Shown here: in pieces, positions 2,657-27,797 of the stretch | Layout of the letters: each line of letters opens with the position of its first letter | Position numbering within the stretch: the stretch's first letter is position 1 | Source: Deltaproteobacteria bacterium | GTDB lineage: Bacteria; Desulfobacterota; Binatia; Binatales; Binataceae | DNA: 64,000 nt | Direction of reading: 5' to 3' | NCBI GenBank assembly: GCA_021817345.1 | Contig: JAKAVC010000099.1 | Location: 18,338 to 82,337, forward strand | Made by a program: the position numbers and the translations under genes | The notes under the pieces: generated by a model | Database searches by the model: none | Seen by the model: only the letters and a program-made list of their open reading frames with translations | What the model was told of the DNA's origin: nothing

Positions 2657-3688
2657 TCAGGCCAAATCCCAGTATTTGCCGACGCTCTGAAGCGCCCGCT
2701 CGATTATCGGCATCACGCGGTCGCCTCGCGGCGGATTCTGAAGGGGTTCGTCGGCCTCGCGCCCGAATTCCTCGAGCACCGCCCTGCCCGAGTTGGCGAG
2801 CGCTTCGAGATCGTAGCCGCCTTCGAGCACCGCGACGACCTTGCCGCCGCAGCTCTCAGCGGCAAGCCGCCTGACCCGGCGCGCCATCTGCTCGAAGCCC
2901 GTCTCCGTCACCTCCATCGCGCCGAGCGGGTCGCGGAAATGGCAATCGAATCCTGCCGACACCAGGATGAACTCGGGCTTGAAGGCACGCCCGATCGGCA
3001 GGATCAGCTCGTCGAAAACGCGAAGATATTCGGGGTCGCCGAACCCCGCGGGCATCGGCGCATTGACCGTGTAGCCGATACCCTCGCCCGCGCCCATATC
3101 GTAAAGCGAACCGGTTCCGGGGTAGTGCGGATACTGATGGGTCGAGACGTAGAGCAGGTTTTTTGACTTGTAGAAGATGTCTTGCGTGCCGTTGCCATGA
3201 TGGAGGTCCCAATCGACCACCATCACCCTCTCAAGCCCTCTCTTGAGCAGCCACGAGGCGGCTATCGCGACGTTGTTGAAGAAGCAGAAGCCCATCGCGC
3301 GATTGGGAAGCGCGTGATGCCCGGGCGGACGGACGATCGCAAAGGCATTGTCGGCTCCGCCTTCGAACACCGCCTCGACCGCTGTAAGCGCGCCGCCCGC
3401 GGCGAGCAACGCGGCGCTGTACGTGTCGCGCGAGGTGTGAGTGTCGGCGTCGAAATCGTAGCGGTCCACGTGCGAGGTCTTCTCGACCAGCGCGATATAG
3501 TCGCTGGTGTGGCATAGCGCGATTTCCTCGAGCGTGGCTTCGCGCGGCGGGCAGAAGTCAAGTCCGGCGCGCTCGAGGCTTTCCGCCATCTCAATCATAA
3601 CTCTCACACGCTCGGGGCGCTCGGGATGGGCCCGGCCGGCAAAATGCTTCAGATAACGGCGGTCGGTTACGATTGCGGTTTTAACCAT
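2657..3688 (-). CDS. Histone deacetylase / acetoin-utilization AcuC family amidohydrolase
   Basis: HDAC motifs GFCFFNNVAIAA, HHGNGTQ and YPGTG are present. The track start at 3697 is GTG; the ATG (MVKTAIV) at 3688 is more likely. Confidence 0.8.
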   Translation of the reverse strand: MVKTAIVTDRRYLKHFAGRAHPERPERVRVMIEMAESLERAGLDFCPPREATLEEIALCHTSDYIALVEKTSHVDRYDFDADTHTSRDTYSAALLAAGGALTAVEAVFEGGADNAFAIVRPPGHHALPNRAMGFCFFNNVAIAASWLLKRGLERVMVVDWDLHHGNGTQDIFYKSKNLLYVSTHQYPHYPGTGSLYDMGAGEGIGYTVNAPMPAGFGDPEYLRVFDELILPIGRAFKPEFILVSAGFDCHFRDPLGAMEVTETGFEQMARRVRRLAAESCGGKVVAVLEGGYDLEALANSGRAVLEEFGREADEPLQNPPRGDRVMPIIERALQSVGKYWDLA

Positions 3689-3776
3689 CGTTGACACCCC
3701 GACGGGCGATCATGTTTGATTATAGACGGGAGCTGCGTCGACAGGCACGCGCGCCGTCGCTTTCAGGAAGCGGAAT

Positions 3777-4058
3777 TTGGGCATTACCGAAATAATACTG
3801 ATTCTTGTCGTGGCGCTGATTGTCGTGGGCCCCGAGGGCCTGCCCGATTTCCTGCGGGCCGCTGGCAAGATAGTGCGCGAGTTGCAATCCGCCGGAAACA
3901 CCGTGATGCGCGAATTGACCGAGGCGGTCGATGAGCCGCGCCGCGCGCTCAACGAACTCAATCCTCTTGCTCCTAATTCCGGCACGCGAAGTCCGAAGCA
4001 GAACAACTCCGGGCCGGAGCCGGAGAAGAGTCCGGAAGATACGCCAGAGCAACACTAA
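3777..4058 (+). CDS. tatA: Twin-arginine translocase TatA/TatB-family protein
   Basis: The N-terminus MGITEIILILVVALIVVGPEGLP is an N-terminal TM helix plus hinge typical of TatA/B. The start is TTG, preceded by AGGAAG, and the C-tail is amphipathic/acidic. Confidence 0.75.
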   Translation: MGITEIILILVVALIVVGPEGLPDFLRAAGKIVRELQSAGNTVMRELTEAVDEPRRALNELNPLAPNSGTRSPKQNNSGPEPEKSPEDTPEQH

Positions 4059-4067
4059 ACTCTGTTT

Positions 4068-4919
4068 GTGACAGACGAGGAAACGAATCTCCCGACGGAA
4101 TTGCCGGAGGGCGTGGAACTCCCGGACCCCGAGCATATTCCCGACGGCCCCGACGAAGCGCGGATGCCGATAATCGAGCATCTGCGCGAACTCCGCACCC
4201 GCCTGATCCGCGCGCTTATCGCCTTGGTGGTCGGCTTTGCGGTCGCCTATCTGATTTCGGACCAGCTCTTCGCGGCGCTGACCTGGCCGATTCGCGAAGT
4301 CTCGCACGGCAAGGTAATGCTGATCGGAACGGGCGTCGGCGAGGCGTTTTTCACCAAGATAAAGGTGGCGCTGGTCGCCGGGCTGTTCATCGCCAGTCCT
4401 GCGGTATTTTACGAAATCTGGAAGTTCATCGTCCCCGGCCTCTACAAGTCCGAACGGAGGATGGCGGCGCCGTTCATCATCTCGGCGACGATATTCTTCA
4501 TCCTTGGCGGATATTTCTGCTGGGCGGTTGTGTTCAAGGTCGGCTACACGTTCTTCCTGTCGGAGTACGCGAGTATCGGCGTCACCCCCACGATTCGGAT
4601 TAGCGAGTATCTGGCGTTCTCCACGAAGCTGATGCTCGCCTTCGCGCTCACCTTCGAGATGCCCATTTTCGCATACTTCCTGACCCGGCTCGGGATCATC
4701 GACCATCGCATGATGCTGCGCCAGGTCAGCTACGCGGTTCTCGGCATCTTCGTGGTGGCCGCGATGCTGACGCCGCCGGACATGGTCTCGCAGTTCCTGC
4801 TCGCGATACCGCTTTTGCTCCTGTACGCGCTGAGCGTCGGCGTGTCGTATTTGTTCCGGCTGCCTCACGAAGAACCGGCGCCGGCCGCCGAAGGTTCCGA
4901 CGGTCCCGAAGTTTCCTGA
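4068..4919 (+). CDS. tatC: Twin-arginine translocase subunit TatC (copy 1)
   Basis: The sequence MPIIEHLRELRTRLIRALIALVVGFAVAY... has the six-TM TatC architecture and an acidic N-terminal extension. Confidence 0.9.
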   Translation: MTDEETNLPTELPEGVELPDPEHIPDGPDEARMPIIEHLRELRTRLIRALIALVVGFAVAYLISDQLFAALTWPIREVSHGKVMLIGTGVGEAFFTKIKVALVAGLFIASPAVFYEIWKFIVPGLYKSERRMAAPFIISATIFFILGGYFCWAVVFKVGYTFFLSEYASIGVTPTIRISEYLAFSTKLMLAFALTFEMPIFAYFLTRLGIIDHRMMLRQVSYAVLGIFVVAAMLTPPDMVSQFLLAIPLLLLYALSVGVSYLFRLPHEEPAPAAEGSDGPEVS

Positions 4920-5055
4920 GCGTCTCGTCGTTCCCCGGAAAAGCCATAACGCCCTTAAGATGAGCGAGCATGAGCGGGCGCGACAAGCGCAAGCGCCCGT
5001 CGCGGACCGAATCTGGCTTACCCACAGGGCCGGGCGTAACATTTACCTTGGGTAA

Positions 5056-5090
5056 GGGAATTTGGGGCATTTTCGAAAATGGTGCTGAAC
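5056..5090 (+). pseudogene. Vestigial tatA 5' end (RBS plus first codons) left between the tatC paralogs
   Basis: gggaatttggggcattttcgaaaatggtgctg matches cggaatttgggcattaccgaaataatactg at 3770-3803 (the tatA RBS and start). The reading frame is lost immediately after. Confidence 0.4.
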
Positions 5091-5133
5091 CCTCCCCAGA
5101 TCTGAACTCGAAAGCGCAGTAACGCTTCAGCCC

Positions 5134-5973
5134 GTGGAGAACGAGGAAAGCAACCAGACCGAGCCTGCGGAGAACGTCGAGTTCCTCGAAGGCGAGCAAT
5201 CACCCGACGGTCCCGACCTGGCGCGCATGCCGATACTCGAGCATCTGCGCGAACTCCGCACCCGCCTGATCCGCTCGCTTATCGCGCTGGCGGCCGGCTT
5301 TGCGGTCGCCTATGCGATCTCCGATCAACTGTTCGCCGCGCTCACTCTGCCGCTTCGCGAAGTCGCGCACGGCAAGCTGCTCCTTATCGGAACCGGCGTC
5401 GGCGAGGCGTTCTTCACCAAGATAAAAGTGGCGCTGATAGCCGGCCTGTTTATCGCAAGCCCGGCGGTCTTCTACGAGGTCTGGAAATTCATCGCGCCCG
5501 GACTTTACAAGTCCGAGCGCCGGATGGCGGCGCCGTTCATCCTGTTCGCCACGGCTTTCTTCATCCTGGGCGGCTATTTCTGCTGGGCGGTGGTGTTCAA
5601 AGTCGGCTACGCGTTTTTCATCCACGAATACGCCACGATTGGCGTGACGCCCACGATTCGAATCAGCGAATACCTGGCGTTCTCGGCCAAGCTGATGCTC
5701 GCCTTCGGGGTCACGTTCGAGATGCCTATCTTTGCCTACTTCCTGACCCGCCTGGGCATGATCGACCATCGGATGATGGTGCACTACTTCAAATATGCAT
5801 TTCTTGGCATCTTTGTCGTGTCCGCGATTCTGACCCCGCCCGGGTTCGTCGCGCAGTTCCTGCTCGCGATACCACTTCTCCTCCTGTACGCGGTCAGTAT
5901 AGGAGTCGCCTACGTGTTTCGTTTGCCCGAGGGCGAAACCGAACCGGCCGCCTTGGGACCGGGAGTCTCCTGA
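5134..5973 (+). CDS. tatC: Twin-arginine translocase subunit TatC (copy 2, tandem paralog)
   Basis: It is about 85% identical to copy 1 across the TatC core (MPILEHLRELRTRLIRSLIALAAGFAVAY...). The N- and C-terminal tails differ. Confidence 0.9.
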   Translation: MENEESNQTEPAENVEFLEGEQSPDGPDLARMPILEHLRELRTRLIRSLIALAAGFAVAYAISDQLFAALTLPLREVAHGKLLLIGTGVGEAFFTKIKVALIAGLFIASPAVFYEVWKFIAPGLYKSERRMAAPFILFATAFFILGGYFCWAVVFKVGYAFFIHEYATIGVTPTIRISEYLAFSAKLMLAFGVTFEMPIFAYFLTRLGMIDHRMMVHYFKYAFLGIFVVSAILTPPGFVAQFLLAIPLLLLYAVSIGVAYVFRLPEGETEPAALGPGVS

Positions 5974-8702: not shown

Positions 8703-9590
8703 ATGAAGCTTGCGCGGCTAGTCTTCGTAACCGGCAAGGGCGGCACGGGCAAGAGCACCGTTTCGGCGGCGCTCGCGCTCGGGCTTGCCCGCGGATGCGA
8801 CGTCACGCTCGCCGACCTTGATCAGAAGCTTTCCGCCGCGCGATTGCTCGGTGTCCAGCTCAACGGCGGCGAACCGGTTCGCGCATCCTCGCGCCTTCAA
8901 GTAATGGCGCTCGACCCGCGCCTCGAACTGGAAGCCTTTCTTGAGAGAATCGTGCCGATCAAGGCGATCTCGCGCCGGATGCTGCGCAGCCGCACGTTCG
9001 GCTACGTAAGCGCCGCGCTTCCCGGCCTAGAGGCATTCCTGATGCTCGAACGGCTAAGGCTCATGACGGGAGAAAGCGCCGGGCACGGCGGCTATCTGGT
9101 CGTCGACGCACCCGCCTCCGGCAACGCCCTCGAGATGCTTTCCGTCGCCCGCGGGGTCAAGGGAATCGCGCCGCTCGGCACGCTCAACCGGCTCGCTTCC
9201 GAGGTCGAATCGTTCCTCGGCGATCCCGCGCGGTTCTGCGTGCTCCTGACGGTTACGCCCGAGGAGATGGCGATACGCGAGGCGATCGAGACGGCCAAGC
9301 TTCTCAGGGCGAGGCTCGGCATCAGCTCGATCGGCGCGGTTCTCAACGGCGCCGTCCCTCCATTGTTCGACGCCGCCGAACTCGCGGCGCTCTCCGCGAT
9401 GGAAGAGCACGCGCGGCTCGCGCTCAGGAGAAACGCTCTAGCTGAGCATACGGTCGGCGCGCGAGAGCAACTTGCCGCCGGCGGAGTCCGGGTTGTCGAA
9501 CTCCCGATGCTCTTCAGGCCGGCGCTTGGCAAGGCCGAGCTGAGAAGCCTCGGCCTTCGGCTCGCCGAGGGATTTGCGCGTCATACATGA
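8703..9590 (+). CDS. ArsA/Get3-family P-loop ATPase (half-size), variant P-loop
   Basis: The P-loop VFVTGKGGTGKSTVSAALA is a deviant Walker A of the ArsA/ParA class. It is 295 aa and overlaps the next gene by 4 bp (ATGA). Confidence 0.75.
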   Translation: MKLARLVFVTGKGGTGKSTVSAALALGLARGCDVTLADLDQKLSAARLLGVQLNGGEPVRASSRLQVMALDPRLELEAFLERIVPIKAISRRMLRSRTFGYVSAALPGLEAFLMLERLRLMTGESAGHGGYLVVDAPASGNALEMLSVARGVKGIAPLGTLNRLASEVESFLGDPARFCVLLTVTPEEMAIREAIETAKLLRARLGISSIGAVLNGAVPPLFDAAELAALSAMEEHARLALRRNALAEHTVGAREQLAAGGVRVVELPMLFRPALGKAELRSLGLRLAEGFARHT

Positions 9591-22466: not shown

Positions 22467-22979
22467 TTATTCTGACCGACGCGGAGGATTGAGGCGAGTG
22501 CGCGCCTTCGAAGCGCCGCCCCGGCGTTGCGCCGGTATCGCGCGTATCACCGGTGTGGTTGTCCGGGCGTCGATTTTACTTCCGCAGTGCGAGCACACCA
22601 GCGTCGGACGGGTCTTGTAGCCGCACTCGCGATGGACCAGTTCGACCGGCGGACCGCCTTCGCACGCCATCCACTTGTCGCCCCATCGGAGCATCGCAAC
22701 CAGTATCGGATACAGGTCGAGTCCCTTGGCCGTGAGCCAGTATTGGACGTGATCGCCAGGCGGCGCGTTCTCGATTCGTTCGAAAATTCCGTTACGCACC
22801 AGCGCCCTGAGCCTCGCGCTCAGAATATTGCGCGCAACCCCTGTGCGAGCCTGGAATTCATCGAAGCGGCGGCGGCCCAAAAACGCCTCGCGCAGTATGA
22901 GCATCGTCCATCGCTCGCCCACGACCGAAAGCGCCCGCGCAACCGAGCAGGTCGTTTCGCCGACCGATTCCCAGCGCAT
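22467..22979 (-). CDS. HxlR-family winged-helix transcriptional regulator with C-terminal Cys-rich (zinc-ribbon-like) tail
   Basis: CSVARALSVVGERWTMLILREAF...RTGVARNILSARL is the HxlR core. The tail is ...ECGYKTRPTLVCSHCGSK. The start was chosen at MRWESVGE (ATG 22979). It is divergent from the quinone oxidoreductase gene. Confidence 0.7.
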   Translation of the reverse strand: MRWESVGETTCSVARALSVVGERWTMLILREAFLGRRRFDEFQARTGVARNILSARLRALVRNGIFERIENAPPGDHVQYWLTAKGLDLYPILVAMLRWGDKWMACEGGPPVELVHRECGYKTRPTLVCSHCGSKIDARTTTPVIRAIPAQRRGGASKARTRLNPPRRSE

Positions 22980-23197
22980 CGCAGTTCCCTGATCCAGCCG
23001 CCCGAGGTCCGCTGAAAAGCGGCGCTCACGCGAGCTTCGCGCTCCATCGTTTTTATAGTTGCATTTCGAAACCGTGGGCGCTAGGTCTCGAAACTGCTGT
23101 CCCGCGCCGATCCAACGTGGTGAATGCCCCTGCGCGACAAACACAATCCGCGCGGGGACGCTGATTCTTACGACGCCGCGCGCGGGAGGAGGAAAAC

Positions 23198-24169
23198 GTG
23201 AAAGCGATCCAATTCGACAGGCTCGGCGGAGCCGAGGTGCTGAAACTGGTTGAAACCGCGATTCCCGAAGTGAGGCCGGGGACCGTTCTCGTGAAAAATC
23301 ACGCGATCGGCGTCAATTTCGCCGATACGCTGTTCAGGCAGGGACAGTACGCGATGGCGCCGAAGCTGCCGGATACGCCGGGCTTCGAATCCGCCGGCGT
23401 AATCGAAAAGGTCGGCGACGGCGTTGGCGCCGAACTCAGGCTCGGGATGCGGGTCGCGGCAATCGGCGTGCAAGCTTACGCGGAGTACTCGCTCGCGCGC
23501 GCGTCAACGGTGATACCCCTGCCCGACTTCGTAAGTTTCGAGGAAGGCGCGGCGTTTCCAATCCAGGTGCTGACCGCGTGGCACCTGCTGCACTCATGCC
23601 ATCAGACGCGCGCGGGCGAGACCGTGGTCGTGCATTCCGCCGCGGGCGGAGTCGGGCTTTCCGCAATCCAGATCGCCAAGGCGGCCGGCGCGCGGGTTAT
23701 CGGCACGGTTTCGAGCGAATCGAAGGCCTCGCTCGCGCGGGAATACGGCGCCGACGAGGTCATCAATTACGCGACAAGCGATTTCTCCGCGGAAGTGATG
23801 AAGCTGACCGGACGGCGCGGCGCCGATCTGGTTCTCGACGCCGTGGGCAAGCCCACCTTCGAGAAGGGACTCGCGTGCCTCGCTCCGATGGGCCATCTGG
23901 TGCTTTACGGACGCGCGGGCGGACCGCCCGAGCCGCTCAACGTCTTCAGGCTGTTCGAGAAATCGACCAAGGTCAGCGGCTTCATGCTCAACCAGGCGCA
24001 TACCGGCGCGGAGCGATGGCGGCGCGGAATCGATGATTCGTTTCGCCTGATGAAGGAAGGCAAGCTTAGACTGCTCATCGGAAAAACTTTTCCGCTCGCG
24101 AACGCCGCCGAGGCGCATCGCTTCATGGAGTCGCGCGCGTCGGTGGGAAAACTGATTCTCAAGCCCTGA
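23198..24169 (+). CDS. NADPH:quinone oxidoreductase / zinc-type alcohol dehydrogenase-like (MDR family)
   Basis: MKAIQFDRLGGAEVLKLVE..., AAGGVGLSAIQIAKAAGARVIGTVSS. Confidence 0.85.
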   Translation: MKAIQFDRLGGAEVLKLVETAIPEVRPGTVLVKNHAIGVNFADTLFRQGQYAMAPKLPDTPGFESAGVIEKVGDGVGAELRLGMRVAAIGVQAYAEYSLARASTVIPLPDFVSFEEGAAFPIQVLTAWHLLHSCHQTRAGETVVVHSAAGGVGLSAIQIAKAAGARVIGTVSSESKASLAREYGADEVINYATSDFSAEVMKLTGRRGADLVLDAVGKPTFEKGLACLAPMGHLVLYGRAGGPPEPLNVFRLFEKSTKVSGFMLNQAHTGAERWRRGIDDSFRLMKEGKLRLLIGKTFPLANAAEAHRFMESRASVGKLILKP

Positions 24170-24398: not shown

Positions 24399-25823
24399 CT
24401 ATTGTAGGGTGCTCAGCGCAAACGTGCTGCTCGTGCCGCGCTCCCACCCGTCCCATAGGAAGTCCCGCTCTGTGCCGTCGGCGATCACGCGCAGCGCGTA
24501 GCGCACTTGCTCTTGATAGAACTCGCAGAAGCCGCCCATGCTGGCGACCGAGCCGTTCATCGCGTGCGCCTCGGCGGGGCAGGGCGCCCCGCAGAAATGG
24601 CGAATTGCGCATTCCTTGCAGGCTTCGATGTCTTCGACGCGTCGGCTCGTGACCGACTTGCACGCCTCGCTTTCGAGAATTACCGCAAGATCATCCTCGA
24701 AGATATTACCCGCGCGGAAGACCGGCAGGCCGACGAACTCGCTGCACGGAAACACGTCGCCGTTGGCCGCCACGGCGAAGAAGCAACGGCCCGCACCACA
24801 GGGTGAAATGTCGCACATCAGCCGCCGCGCCGTCGGGGCGAGGATGGCAGTCAGCGTATTGGCGAAGTTTGCAATCACAAGCTTGCGCCCGGTCCGCGCA
24901 TAGAGCTCGTGAGCACGGTCGATCGCGGCGAGGAAATGCGAAGCCGCGGCGCGGTCTGGCGGCTTGATTGCGCGGGAGGCAGGCATCGTGCAGCGAAGCA
25001 CGTTCAGCATCGCGGCAGGGACATGATGCGCATGGAGAAACTCGACCATCCCCGGCAGATGGCGCATGTTCTCGCGCGTGATGGTCGTAATGACGCTCCA
25101 TCTCGGGTAATCCCTGAGGCGCTCCATCGCCGATACAACGGTCGCGTAAGCGCCTTTGCCGGCCCACGAATGCCGCGTGCGATCCGCGATCTCTGCGATC
25201 GGAGCGTCGAGCGATATCCCGATGCCGACGTCGCGCGAGAGCAGGAAGTTCCGCGCGTTCTCGTCCAGCAATGTCGCGTTGGTTTGAATGCCGAAGCGGA
25301 AAACTCCGGCAAAAGCGTCGATGCCGGCGAATACCGCGTCGCGGTTCAGCAGTGGCTCCGCCCCATGGAAGACCATTTGCGGCGGCGGCGCGCCGGGGGG
25401 CTGCGTGTCCTTGAAAAAATGCGCGAGCCGCCCGAGGGCGTCAAGCAACCTGGACGCCGACATGTGCCGGCCGCGCCGGCGAGTCGTTGGCGGAATATAA
25501 CAGTAGGTACAGTTCAGATTGCAGCGGTCGGTCGGGTTGAAGTAGACGGCCGACGGCTTGATGCCGAATCGCAGCGCCTCGACCTCCTGGGTGAAAGCCG
25601 GCAACTTGCGAAGGTAGCGGTCGAGGAGCTTGCGGCCGCTCAGCGCCTCGGCCAGCTTCTCCTTACGCACCAAAGCCCAGAAGGCTGTCTCGGGAGCGAG
25701 CACGGCCATGTAGCGTTCGTGCCCGATATCAAGAACCTGAAATGTCGAGTCGGCGCCGGTGTTCGGATAGGAGCCCCGCAAAAGCGGCTCATGACGGGTC
25801 CGGCCCGTCGCTTTGGCAGCCAT
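24399..25823 (-). CDS. Radical SAM enzyme with C-terminal SPASM domain and N-terminal PqqD/RRE-like extension (putative peptide/cofactor maturase)
   Basis: The radical-SAM CX3CX2C motif is CNLNCTYC, at about residue 103-110. The SPASM motif Cx2Cx5Cx3C is CKECAIRHFCGAPC, with further Cys (CDISPCGAGRC, CEFY). The roughly 100-aa N-terminus contains YMAVLAPETAFWALV, reminiscent of the PqqD/RRE wHTH. Confidence 0.85.
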   Translation of the reverse strand: MAAKATGRTRHEPLLRGSYPNTGADSTFQVLDIGHERYMAVLAPETAFWALVRKEKLAEALSGRKLLDRYLRKLPAFTQEVEALRFGIKPSAVYFNPTDRCNLNCTYCYIPPTTRRRGRHMSASRLLDALGRLAHFFKDTQPPGAPPPQMVFHGAEPLLNRDAVFAGIDAFAGVFRFGIQTNATLLDENARNFLLSRDVGIGISLDAPIAEIADRTRHSWAGKGAYATVVSAMERLRDYPRWSVITTITRENMRHLPGMVEFLHAHHVPAAMLNVLRCTMPASRAIKPPDRAAASHFLAAIDRAHELYARTGRKLVIANFANTLTAILAPTARRLMCDISPCGAGRCFFAVAANGDVFPCSEFVGLPVFRAGNIFEDDLAVILESEACKSVTSRRVEDIEACKECAIRHFCGAPCPAEAHAMNGSVASMGGFCEFYQEQVRYALRVIADGTERDFLWDGWERGTSSTFALSTLQ

Positions 25824-26822
25824 GGGCGTTTACCGAATGAGGCCAATTCGGCCGGGGAGTGTCTGCGACCGTATGCTCGCGTGCATCGAGCTTCGAGCTA
25901 CGCTTCGGCCCAACGGGAACGCCGGCGAGTCGTTGGGGATTTGGCCGACGACCTCGATGCTCCATCGAGGAGAATATAGTGGGTAAGGCCGGTGCCGCCT
26001 GGCGTGCAACGCCTGCGCGTCGCGATCACGTCCTGACCCCTGTGGTTCTGGCTTGAATCCCTACGCTTCATGAGCACGCCCTTCCCGTTCCCTGTCATCC
26101 TCTGGATTTCGTATTGGCGGAAGCGGCGTTTCCGGCAATCAACGCGTCGGAATGACTCATCTGAAATTCCCGTTTCGGAAATTTCAAACACGCGATTTCT
26201 ACCTCGGTGGCCGCACCGGTGTCAACTCGCCGCCCGCTTCGAGCCCTTTCAGTTGCTTTGCAAAACCAGTGTCGCGCCGACCCTCGCCATTATCCGCGTT
26301 GACACGGCGCGGTTGGCGCGATAGCAGAGGATTGAAGCGGGCGAGATGGCAGCAAGGCCCGTAATAATCTTGCGGTCTGAAATCCCGAGTATGCCCAGCG
26401 ACTTCACAATTAAGCGCCGCCGCGGGCGGGTTTCCGAGCCATGAGGACATCTTCCGCCACCGGACGCGGTCCTGCCAGACACGCGAGGCGACCTGCCAAG
26501 GTGATTCCCCTGCCCACGCCGAAGTTCGTGCGACGCAAGCGACTGATTAGGCTTGCGGTTGCACTGGCGGTGGCACTGCTTGCCATCGCGATGGCGGCAA
26601 GGCTCTTCATCGCGCGAGCGACCTTATCGCATTCGTATCGCGTGCAGGAACCGAGTGAACGCGGCCCGGGAATCCTCCCGATGGCCTACCACGCATTGCG
26701 CGCGGTTCCGCACGGCGGAGCCGGAATCCGGGCGTTGTCCGGCGTCTGACCTTTCGAACGTCTTGCCGTCCGACGACAAAAACGCGCTGCCGCCAACGCT
26801 TGGTTTTGCGCAAATCGCGGCG

Positions 26823-27797
26823 ATGGCGGCGGGGCACGCGGAGGCGCGCGCGCTTCAGACCGCGCTCAAGCTTGGAGTTTTCGAGGCGCTGGCCAGGAGC
26901 GACGCGAGCGCCGACGCTCTAGCGCACGCGCTCGGCTGCGACGCCCGGGCAACCGGTCTTCTTGCCAACGCGATGGTGGCAATGGGCCTTCTCGCCAAGA
27001 GCGACGGGCGTTTTCGGCTCGGCGAACCGGCGCGCCGTTATCTGCTCCGGTCTTCACCCGAATACCTGGGCGGCATGATCCTGTTCGACGAAGCGCTGTG
27101 GGACGTATGGGGTCGGCTCGACAAATCGGTCCGAAGCGGCAGGCCGGCGCGCACGCCCGACATGTTTCAGAGCAGACCCGAGGAGACGTTTCGCTTCATA
27201 AGCGCGATGGACAGCCTGGTCCGGGCGCGCGGCGATGCGTGCTACCTTGCGGATAATCTCGATCTCGGCGGCGTAAGCAGAATCATGGACGTGGGCGGAG
27301 GGCCGGGAACTTACGTGGCGGCGATGCTTCGGCGATGGCCCGGGATGCGCGGCGTGATATGCGACCTTCCCGCGACGCTTGCAGTCGCGCGGCAAATCCT
27401 TGCCGAGCGCGAGCCCGACGTGACGGACCGGATCGAACTGGTCGCGCTCGATTACCGCCGCGATGAACTTCCCGGACCGTGCGACGCGCTCTTCATGTCG
27501 AACATCATCCACAGCGAGCCGCCGGAAACCAACCGGATGCTGATGGGCAAGTGCTTTCGCGCGCTCGCGGCGTGCGGGCGCGTGATCATCAAGGATCACA
27601 TCATGAACGCGGAGATGACCGAGCCGCGCGCGGGCGCGATCTTCTCGTTGTACCTGCTGCTCACCACCCACGGGCGCGATTACAGCCTTGACGAAGTGCG
27701 GCGATGGCTCGAAGACGCCGGTTTCACCGCGATCAGGGAGCTTGCGATGAAGGGCGGACCATTCACTTCTTCGCTGGTCGTCGGGGAAAAACCCTGA
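26823..27797 (+). CDS. Class I SAM-dependent O-methyltransferase (family-2 O-MT with N-terminal dimerisation/wHTH domain)
   Basis: LKLGVFEALA...ADALAHALGCDARATGLLANAMVAMGLL is the dimerisation domain. MDVGGGPGTYVAAM is motif I and VICDLP follows. The ORF is open from 26553; ATG 26823 was chosen, so the start is uncertain. Confidence 0.75.
   Translation: MAAGHAEARALQTALKLGVFEALARSDASADALAHALGCDARATGLLANAMVAMGLLAKSDGRFRLGEPARRYLLRSSPEYLGGMILFDEALWDVWGRLDKSVRSGRPARTPDMFQSRPEETFRFISAMDSLVRARGDACYLADNLDLGGVSRIMDVGGGPGTYVAAMLRRWPGMRGVICDLPATLAVARQILAEREPDVTDRIELVALDYRRDELPGPCDALFMSNIIHSEPPETNRMLMGKCFRALAACGRVIIKDHIMNAEMTEPRAGAIFSLYLLLTTHGRDYSLDEVRRWLEDAGFTAIRELAMKGGPFTSSLVVGEKP

Follow-up and report, generated by a model that had tools for sequence, protein, structure and literature searches.

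The window analysed here is a 64,000-nucleotide (nt) stretch of contig JAKAVC010000099.1 from a deltaproteobacterial genome (GenBank assembly GCA_021817345.1; Binatia, Binataceae). Our subject is the 999-nt gap at positions 25824–26822, which is flanked by divergent genes for a radical S-adenosylmethionine (radical-SAM) enzyme (24399–25823, minus strand) and an O-methyltransferase (O-MT, plus strand). The gap holds a gene that annotation had missed, for a peptide precursor of the CbpA family, which is known and was defined computationally, together with a regulatory region and a second small gene (Table 1). We consider it highly probable that the gap contains the regulatory sequences of an operon of two genes, cbpA and cbpB, along with the first of these genes, and that this operon lies back to back with a second small one. 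An earlier, sequence-only reading had described the gap as low-coding and devoid of long open reading frames (ORFs). There is indeed no long ORF between 25823 and the ATG at 26823, and the four short ORFs that it listed are all present where it placed them, but the description as low-coding was wrong: comparative evidence marks 174 nt (cbpA), 309 nt (ORF102), and about 60 nt (the O-MT N-terminus) as protein-coding. Public gene calls on the same contig place nothing between cbpB and the O-MT gene.

Table 1. Features of the cbpAB locus and of the divergent genes beside it (positions in the window)
Feature	Position	Strand	Basis or remark
cbpB, radical-SAM/SPASM peptide maturase, 474 amino acids (aa)	24399..25823	-	TIGR04163; Pfam Radical_SAM and SPASM
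cbpA-cbpB intercistronic spacer, 74 nt	25824..25897	-	100% identical in L028, 87% in L022
cbpA, 57-aa precursor MKRRDSSQNHRGQDVIATRRRCTPGGTGLTHYILLDGASRSSAKSPTTRRRSRWAEA	26071..25898	-	TIGR04164; conserved start and stop; ribosome-binding site; position upstream of cbpB
Predicted cbpA 5' leader, about 118 nt, AT-richer patch	26072..26189	-	from about 7 nt past the -10 hexamer to the ATG; start predicted
Inverted repeat 11-3-11, TGAAATTCCCG-TTT-CGGAAATTTCA	26162..26186	-	just downstream of the cbpA -10 hexamer
Predicted sigma-70-type cbpA promoter, TTGACA-N18-TAGAAA	26225-26196	-	hexamers and spacing conserved
Block directly upstream of the -35 hexamer, AAAGGGCTCGAAGCGGGCGGCGAG(TTGACA)	26226..26249	-	100% identical in the window, L028, and L022
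Predicted divergent sigma-70-like promoter, TTGACA-N17-TAGCAG	26299..26327	+	hexamers identical in L028 and L022
ORF102, small single-pass membrane protein, 102 aa, lineage-specific	26441..26749	+	codon-level conservation
O-methyltransferase, revised TTG start, 344 aa	26763..27797	+	conserved TTG and upstream peptide

For comparison we collected 31 related loci (numbered with the prefix L); one of these, L021, is the record of the window itself, and two, L011 and L020, hold only distant radical-SAM relatives (22–24%). The region upstream of cbpB was inspected in every cbpB locus apart from the four near-duplicate places of one lineage (L024–L027), and 26 related loci with upstream sequence were available (L001–L010, L012–L019, L022–L024, and L028–L032). 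The closest relatives are L028, with 97% nucleotide identity, and L022, with 88% identity in CbpB and 81% over the gap as a whole; a metagenome scan found no relatives closer. Because frame plots of GC content at third codon positions were too noisy for such short ORFs, pairwise codon-phase tests and ratios of nonsynonymous to synonymous substitution rates (dN/dS) against L022 and L028 were used.

The radical-SAM gene is cbpB. Its product scores 659.6 bits against TIGR04163 (rSAM_cobopep, "peptide-modifying radical SAM enzyme CbpB"), for which the cut-off is 375, carries the CX3CX2C motif as CNLNCTYC, and has a SPASM domain by Pfam. An N-terminal domain of about 95 aa precedes the core that aligns with CteB (5wgg) and anSME, and these two (anSME as 4k37) are the closest solved structures. 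More than 2,030 homologues are found at E ≤ 1e-100. The gene is intact and under purifying selection (dN/dS 0.23).

Immediately upstream of cbpB and in the same orientation, across a gap of 74 nt, lies cbpA, in the context typical of TIGR04164. A precursor peptide was among the things that the sequence-only reading had expected in the gap, and one is there; it is encoded by none of the ORFs listed at the time, the true minus-strand ORF (25898–26191) being in another frame and missing from that list. The 57-aa CbpA matches TIGR04164 (cobo_pep, "modified peptide precursor CbpA") with 35.6 bits (cut-off 35; E 4.6e-9), and the match of ORF 25898–26191 spans VIATRRRCTPGGTGLTHYILLD, the CbpA signature block of NCBIfam. 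We set the limits of the gene as in Table 1 because L028 and L022 share its ATG and its stop and because, in L022, the reading frame is broken in the stretch that would extend it upstream to 26191. A purine-rich run resembling a Shine-Dalgarno sequence, GGGAAGGG, stands 7 nt before the ATG, and throughout the clade to which the window belongs a purine-rich ribosome-binding site precedes a start of the form M-(K/E)-R.

A small ORF encoding (I/V)IAxRKxCxxxGTGL(S/T)HY is found directly upstream of cbpB in 26 of the 26 related loci with upstream sequence. In an alignment of 15 CbpA sequences, R19, C22, G26, G28, L29, H31, and Y32 are invariant, and the N-terminal part varies in both length and sequence. 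Such an arrangement, with the core fixed and the N-terminus variable, would be expected of a cofactor-type precursor, PqqA and MftA being examples, more than of a bacteriocin. The window peptide carries the R..C...G.GL(S/T)HY block, but not as its C-terminus: profile positions 1–22 of 25 align with residues 15–36, after which 21 residues follow, whereas typical members stop 2–6 residues after the motif. Short forms are already named "modified peptide precursor CbpA" at the National Center for Biotechnology Information (NCBI). The exact sequence of the window peptide is absent from a collection of 15 billion proteins and therefore was never called as a gene, and a phmmer search with CbpA against 1.84 billion representatives found no more than four small peptides, its other matches being low-complexity noise. 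Peptides of this type are rarely called as genes. The genes that flank cbpA and cbpB differ from locus to locus; the pair therefore acts as a self-contained two-gene module.

Divergence from the closest relatives is uneven along the locus. Relative to L028, cbpB, cbpA, and the leader are 99.4–100% identical, ORF102 is 92% identical, and positions 26750–26822 are 86% identical; relative to L022, synonymous divergence is 0.13 in cbpA and 0.25 in cbpB, and 0.53–0.77 in ORF102 and in the neighboring quinone oxidoreductase and HAD genes. By these values cbpAB looks like a younger module than the genes around it, or one under stronger constraint; recombination between relatives could account for the unevenness, and so could constraint at the level of RNA.

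The sampled loci fall into two architectures. In 18 of them (L003–L010, L012–L016, L018–L019, and L030–L032, some of which are duplicate lineages) a cobalamin riboswitch (RF00174) lies on the same strand directly before cbpA, and CbpA is short, ending 2–6 residues after HY(I/V)LxD except in L003, where 11 residues follow. In L030–L032, where the sequence was read, a terminator-like hairpin and its T-run come after the aptamer, and the stop of cbpA overlaps the start of cbpB. The second architecture is that of the window, L028, L022, L001, L002, L029, L023, and L024, with CbpB 66–100% identical to that of the window. In these loci CbpA carries a basic, Ser-rich extension of about 20–23 aa (a basic C-terminal tail of about 21 aa in the window), 70–160 nt separate cbpA from cbpB, and RF00174 is absent from eight of eight; in the window there is no match at the gathering score, nor at E ≤ 10 over 25600–27000. 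The sole short-tail locus in which none was seen is L017, whose available upstream sequence is 300 nt long. The riboswitch often accompanies the operon but does not belong to the HMM definition of the family.

The window pair is thus like the rest of the CbpA/CbpB family in that both proteins pass their equivalog cut-offs and the precursor stands directly upstream of its enzyme in a free-standing pair; it is unlike the short-tail members in lacking the riboswitch, in extending beyond the conserved block, and in having a spacer where the riboswitch-type loci have overlapping genes. We tentatively suggest, as a possibility somewhat short of an even chance, that the long-tail loci form a distinct clade in which riboswitch control has been replaced by a constitutive-looking promoter and a 5' hairpin or operator, in which CbpA has acquired a basic follower peptide of about 21 aa, and in which translational coupling has been lost. 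One might instead regard the long-tail cbpA as a decaying or read-through copy that has lost its ancestral stop and gained a meaningless tail, in an operon no longer properly regulated or functional. The tail is indeed poorly conserved in sequence between lineages, the riboswitch is missing, and the family-model scores of the clade lie at or below the cut-off (35.6, 35.0, 35.3, and 24.5 bits). Decay nevertheless appears very unlikely: six lineages with 66–88% CbpB identity all have a tail of similar length (about 20–23 aa) that is basic and rich in Ser, the core of cbpA is invariant, the promoter and ribosome-binding site are conserved, and cbpB shows the purifying selection noted above. What is novel is confined to the architecture of the variant, in which the riboswitch is missing, the precursor bears a tail, and the genes are uncoupled, and it is described from a sample of about 20 lineages.

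Several further observations were made around these loci. In L003 a gene for a fused nitroreductase (BluB-like) and CobT phosphoribosyltransferase (3082–5270) lies just upstream of the cbpA riboswitch, making it a direct neighbor from B12 lower-ligand synthesis. L031 has two divergent cobalamin riboswitches within about 1.1 kb (2–148, minus; 1095–1275, plus), one serving cbpAB and the other a gene off the contig end. In L024, a 66%-identity lineage, a B12-binding radical-SAM gene (587–2194) lies about 2.8 kb upstream of the riboswitch-less cbpAB, which may be coincidental. The deltaproteobacterial metagenome-assembled genome contig L029 carries a tRNA-Sec gene (814–905; 71.8 bits) about 350 nt upstream of its long-tail cbpA, and the alphaproteobacterial metagenome-assembled genome L006 has a match to the mmgR/suhB family of small RNAs (8997–9073, minus; 76.1 bits) about 1.6 kb downstream of cbpB.

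The sequence-only reading had also expected the control region of the radical-SAM gene in the gap, and a predicted minus-strand promoter and leader are present. The hexamers of the predicted cbpA promoter are maintained across five lineages while the spacers and flanks diverge, with counterparts TTGACA-N17-TAGAAC in L022, TTGACG-N18-TAGAAG in L001, TTGACG-N18-TAGAAT in L002, and TTGACC-N17-TACGCT in L024. TTGACA hexamers number nine in the window, counting both strands. The invariant block directly upstream of the -35 hexamer may be an activator or UP-like site. From the position of the -10 hexamer we infer that transcription of cbpA starts near 26189. The resulting leader is 81% identical in L022, including a 20-nt invariant block (CGGAAACGCCGCTTCCGCCA, 26134–26115), and folds somewhat better than shuffled sequence (z -2.2). 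It lies in a region of reduced GC content that had been pointed out before and that we confirm (0.555–0.56 in 200-nt windows over 26000–26299, against about 0.61–0.69 on either side). The spacer between cbpA and cbpB folds no better than shuffled sequence (z +0.24) and has no terminator on the minus strand.

An inverted repeat (11-3-11) lies just past the -10 hexamer. A cluster of GAAATT motifs had been noted at this place; the 39-nt string CTGAAATTCCCGTTTCGGAAATTTCAAACACGCGATTTC was located at 26161–26199, and its GAAATT copies proved to be the arms of the inverted repeat rather than direct repeats. Readings of the GAAATT element as a sigma-54 or sigma-32 promoter or as response-regulator direct repeats were set aside, the consensus spacings not fitting by eye. 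No other copy of the repeat occurs in the 64 kb, where 0.02 matches with up to three mismatches would be expected by chance. In minus-strand RNA it forms a 14-bp hairpin whose paired bases, about 26189–26159, would correspond to about +1 to +31 of the predicted cbpA transcript. The stability of this hairpin is -17.2 kcal/mol (z -4.9; none of 200 shuffles was as stable), against only -7.9 for the plus-strand RNA. Five positions differ in L022, where G.U and U-A changes leave 12 of 13 pairs intact (-12.3 kcal/mol) and the palindrome in the DNA is down to 8 of 13. RNA pairing has been kept there and DNA symmetry has decayed, and an RNA element on the cbpA transcript is therefore favored.

The leader occupies the position, between promoter and cbpA, that RF00174 leaders take in most cbpAB loci sampled, but Rfam, even when searched at E ≤ 10, matches it with neither the cobalamin riboswitch nor any other family, and it begins with the 5' hairpin instead. 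Stabilizing stem-loops at the 5' ends of bacterial mRNAs, such as that of the ompA 5' untranslated region, protect transcripts from 5'-end-dependent decay. The cbpA leader resembles these in having a strong hairpin within a few nucleotides of its 5' end, here a predicted one, and a structured leader. On this model, a cbpA mRNA transcribed from about 26189 would begin at its 5' end with the inverted repeat folded into a hairpin of 14 bp, which would shield the message from 5'-end-dependent decay and allow the short precursor message to accumulate relative to that of the enzyme. CbpB would then bind CbpA and, by 5'-deoxyadenosyl-radical chemistry, introduce a cross-link within the invariant C...GxGL(S/T)HY block, most likely a thioether from the single cysteine, C22, by analogy with CteB and PapB. 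In most sampled lineages a cobalamin riboswitch would shut the operon off, from which we infer that the product is made when B12 is scarce. In the clade of the window the B12 link would be gone and expression set by the promoter and the 5' hairpin or operator, the peptide having gained its basic tail of about 21 aa and the two genes no longer overlapping.

Two groups of known systems bear on the chemistry. Like the SCIFF/CteB and PapA/PapB systems, the locus pairs a radical-SAM/SPASM maturase that has an N-terminal domain of about 95 aa with a small Cys-containing peptide encoded upstream; CteB (5wgg) is the best solved match to CbpB (E 4.8e-29 with a profile) and PapB the best non-self match in NCBIfam. 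Unlike them, CbpB falls far below the respective cut-offs (129.7 vs. 340 for PapB; 93.7 vs. 425 for the SCIFF maturase) and CbpA has one cysteine rather than several; the thioether is drawn by analogy only. With PqqA/PqqE and MftA/MftC the pair shares a short peptide with an invariant core and variable N-terminus, a SPASM radical-SAM maturase, a wide distribution, and the absence of immunity or export genes beside cbpAB. It differs from them in its motif, in having no separate chaperone gene of the PqqD/MftB type, and in having no conserved redox partner genes nearby, and CbpB scores 60.8 against a cut-off of 265 for the mycofactocin maturase. A literature search on CbpA/CbpB, TIGR04163/4, and cobalamin riboswitches with SPASM enzymes retrieved, within the collection of papers searched, no relevant paper and no published chemistry or function.

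Several observations weigh against this account of the operon and its control. CbpA clears its family cut-off by only 0.6 bits, and the 97-aa form of the ORF (25898–26191), at 34.8 bits, falls 0.2 short. The dN/dS of cbpA against L022 is 0.81 (18 substitutions, nearly all outside the conserved core), and selection on the flanks of CbpA is therefore not demonstrated. A scan with a strict sigma-70 consensus found no promoter; it missed that of cbpA because it required T at the last -10 position. The transcription start sites of both promoters are predictions, and the type of cross-link is pure analogy. Finally, L001 and L002 keep TTGGAA..AAAnGGAnATTT at the same place but not the hairpin, pairing being confined to the window, L028, and L022.

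Conservation of the sequence without pairing is explained by a site for protein binding no less well than by an RNA structure. The inverted repeat could accordingly be a DNA operator at which a dimeric repressor, covering +3 to +27, blocks transcription of cbpA in place of the riboswitch off-switch, and a palindrome unique in the window and immediately past the -10 hexamer is in the classic position for a repressor. We regard this as a serious alternative but a rather unlikely one, given that in L022 the symmetry of the DNA has decayed while RNA pairing is maintained through G.U-compatible transitions, that the stability is strand-asymmetric, and that no regulator gene is conserved beside cbpAB, the nearby HxlR-type gene being paired with a quinone oxidoreductase. 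The operator and the RNA hairpin are not mutually exclusive.

On the plus strand, the TTGACA-N17-TAGCAG element of the sequence-only reading exists, 2 nt away from where it had been placed (26297–26325). As expected of a promoter, its TTGACA box is kept in relatives while the 17-nt spacer varies, differing at many positions in L022; the -10 hexamer is weak (3/6). It is probably the promoter of ORF102, which begins 114 nt downstream, and of the O-MT gene. The divergent promoter region lies between the arms of a second inverted repeat, CGCCCGCTTCGAGCC / GGATTGAAGCGGGCG (26231–26245 and 26329–26343), which are 83 nt apart and 87% complementary; in L022 both arms retain their GCCCGCTT core.

ORF102 is a real gene by comparative evidence. 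Its start, stop, and length are the same in L028 and L022, it has no indels in an otherwise gappy alignment, its substitutions by codon position number 26/18/43, and its dN/dS is 0.26 against L028 and 0.31 against L022. The predicted protein has an N-terminus rich in Arg and Lys, a KFVRRKR segment that leads into a single hydrophobic helix (about 24 residues), and then some 45 aa of tail. It has no Pfam or NCBIfam match and only two homologous clusters among 5.8 billion proteins, and its exact sequence is absent from the 15-billion-protein collection. A public gene call in L022 (3..569, 188 aa) that is antisense to ORF102 was rejected; it runs off the contig end and is not conserved in the window.

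The O-MT, with Methyltransf_2 and Dimerisation domains (the latter from residue 86 of the long frame), had been suspected of starting upstream of its ATG at 26823, the frame being open from TTG 26553. That doubt was justified, although the gene does not extend from 26553: the O-MT frame has no coding signal over the overlap with ORF102, and substitutions at 26553–26749 follow the codon phase of ORF102. Starts at 26553 and 26655 would both overlap ORF102. The most likely start is TTG 26763, 14 nt past the ORF102 stop, because L022 and L028 both keep, upstream of ATG 26823, an in-frame TTG and the peptide PPxLGFxxIA, the orthologue in L024 begins 2 aa before F85 of the window protein, and coding signal is lacking in the overlap. 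The public call of 380 aa from GTG 26655 (26655–27797; 2027–3169 in L021), which overlaps ORF102 by 95 nt in another frame, is probably too long, with a mis-called start.

These results bear on an account along the lines of the sequence-only reading, in which the product of the locus would be plus-strand ORF 26070–26324 or 26152–26364, or else a small RNA or riboswitch, and the O-MT, possibly from 26553, would be a tailoring enzyme of the same cluster, for a peptide made by ribosomes and modified after translation (a RiPP). O-methyltransferases are common RiPP tailoring enzymes, both plus-strand ORFs exist, and in L024, too, an O-MT orthologue lies no more than 3.5 kb from cbpB. But both ORFs are broken in frame or truncated in L022 and lack codon-phase bias, the covariance search for a regulatory RNA gave no family match in the whole window or, at E ≤ 10, in the gap, and the 26553 frame has no coding signature over ORF102. 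The O-MT, moreover, is absent from most cbpAB loci, being missing from L001, L002, and the riboswitch-type loci and differently arranged in L024. The O-MT is, on this comparison, not a conserved partner of cbpAB, and the radical-SAM and O-MT genes do not form one system as had been supposed. This account is already largely refuted, and we give it hardly any chance.

The remaining minus-strand ORFs, 25789–25965, 26199–26450, and 26249–26482, were rejected on comparison with relatives for broken frames, unconserved lengths, or lack of phase bias; the first, previously listed with 58 aa, reads through to 150 aa in L022. Rfam searches of the whole window at gathering thresholds and of 25600–27000 at E ≤ 10 returned only three chance-level matches, no tRNA, tmRNA, or meaningful tandem repeat was found, and the terminator scan gave a single terminator-like site (minus strand, 26799–26784), within chance expectation. 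Farther downstream of cbpB, at 22467–24169, an HxlR-family regulator gene (minus) lies divergent from a gene for a zinc-type quinone oxidoreductase (plus); conserved together in L022, they are a typical regulator-target pair unrelated to cbpAB.

For annotation, the analysis adds two missing genes, cbpA and that of the 102-aa membrane protein, corrects the start of the O-MT, and sets the latter outside the peptide system. CbpA and CbpB are widespread, with more than 2,000 close CbpB homologues, and the distribution of riboswitches and the invariant core of the peptide together point to a small product that is conserved and tied to scarcity of B12. The clade of the window, which has the same enzyme and the same core, no B12 control, and an added tail, is a natural comparison. 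If its architecture is as we suggest, a B12-repressed, cofactor-like RiPP may have been rewired for a B12-independent role, or the tail may give it another route of processing or export. Such a comparison could help to reveal the role of the product and the parts of the peptide that are important.

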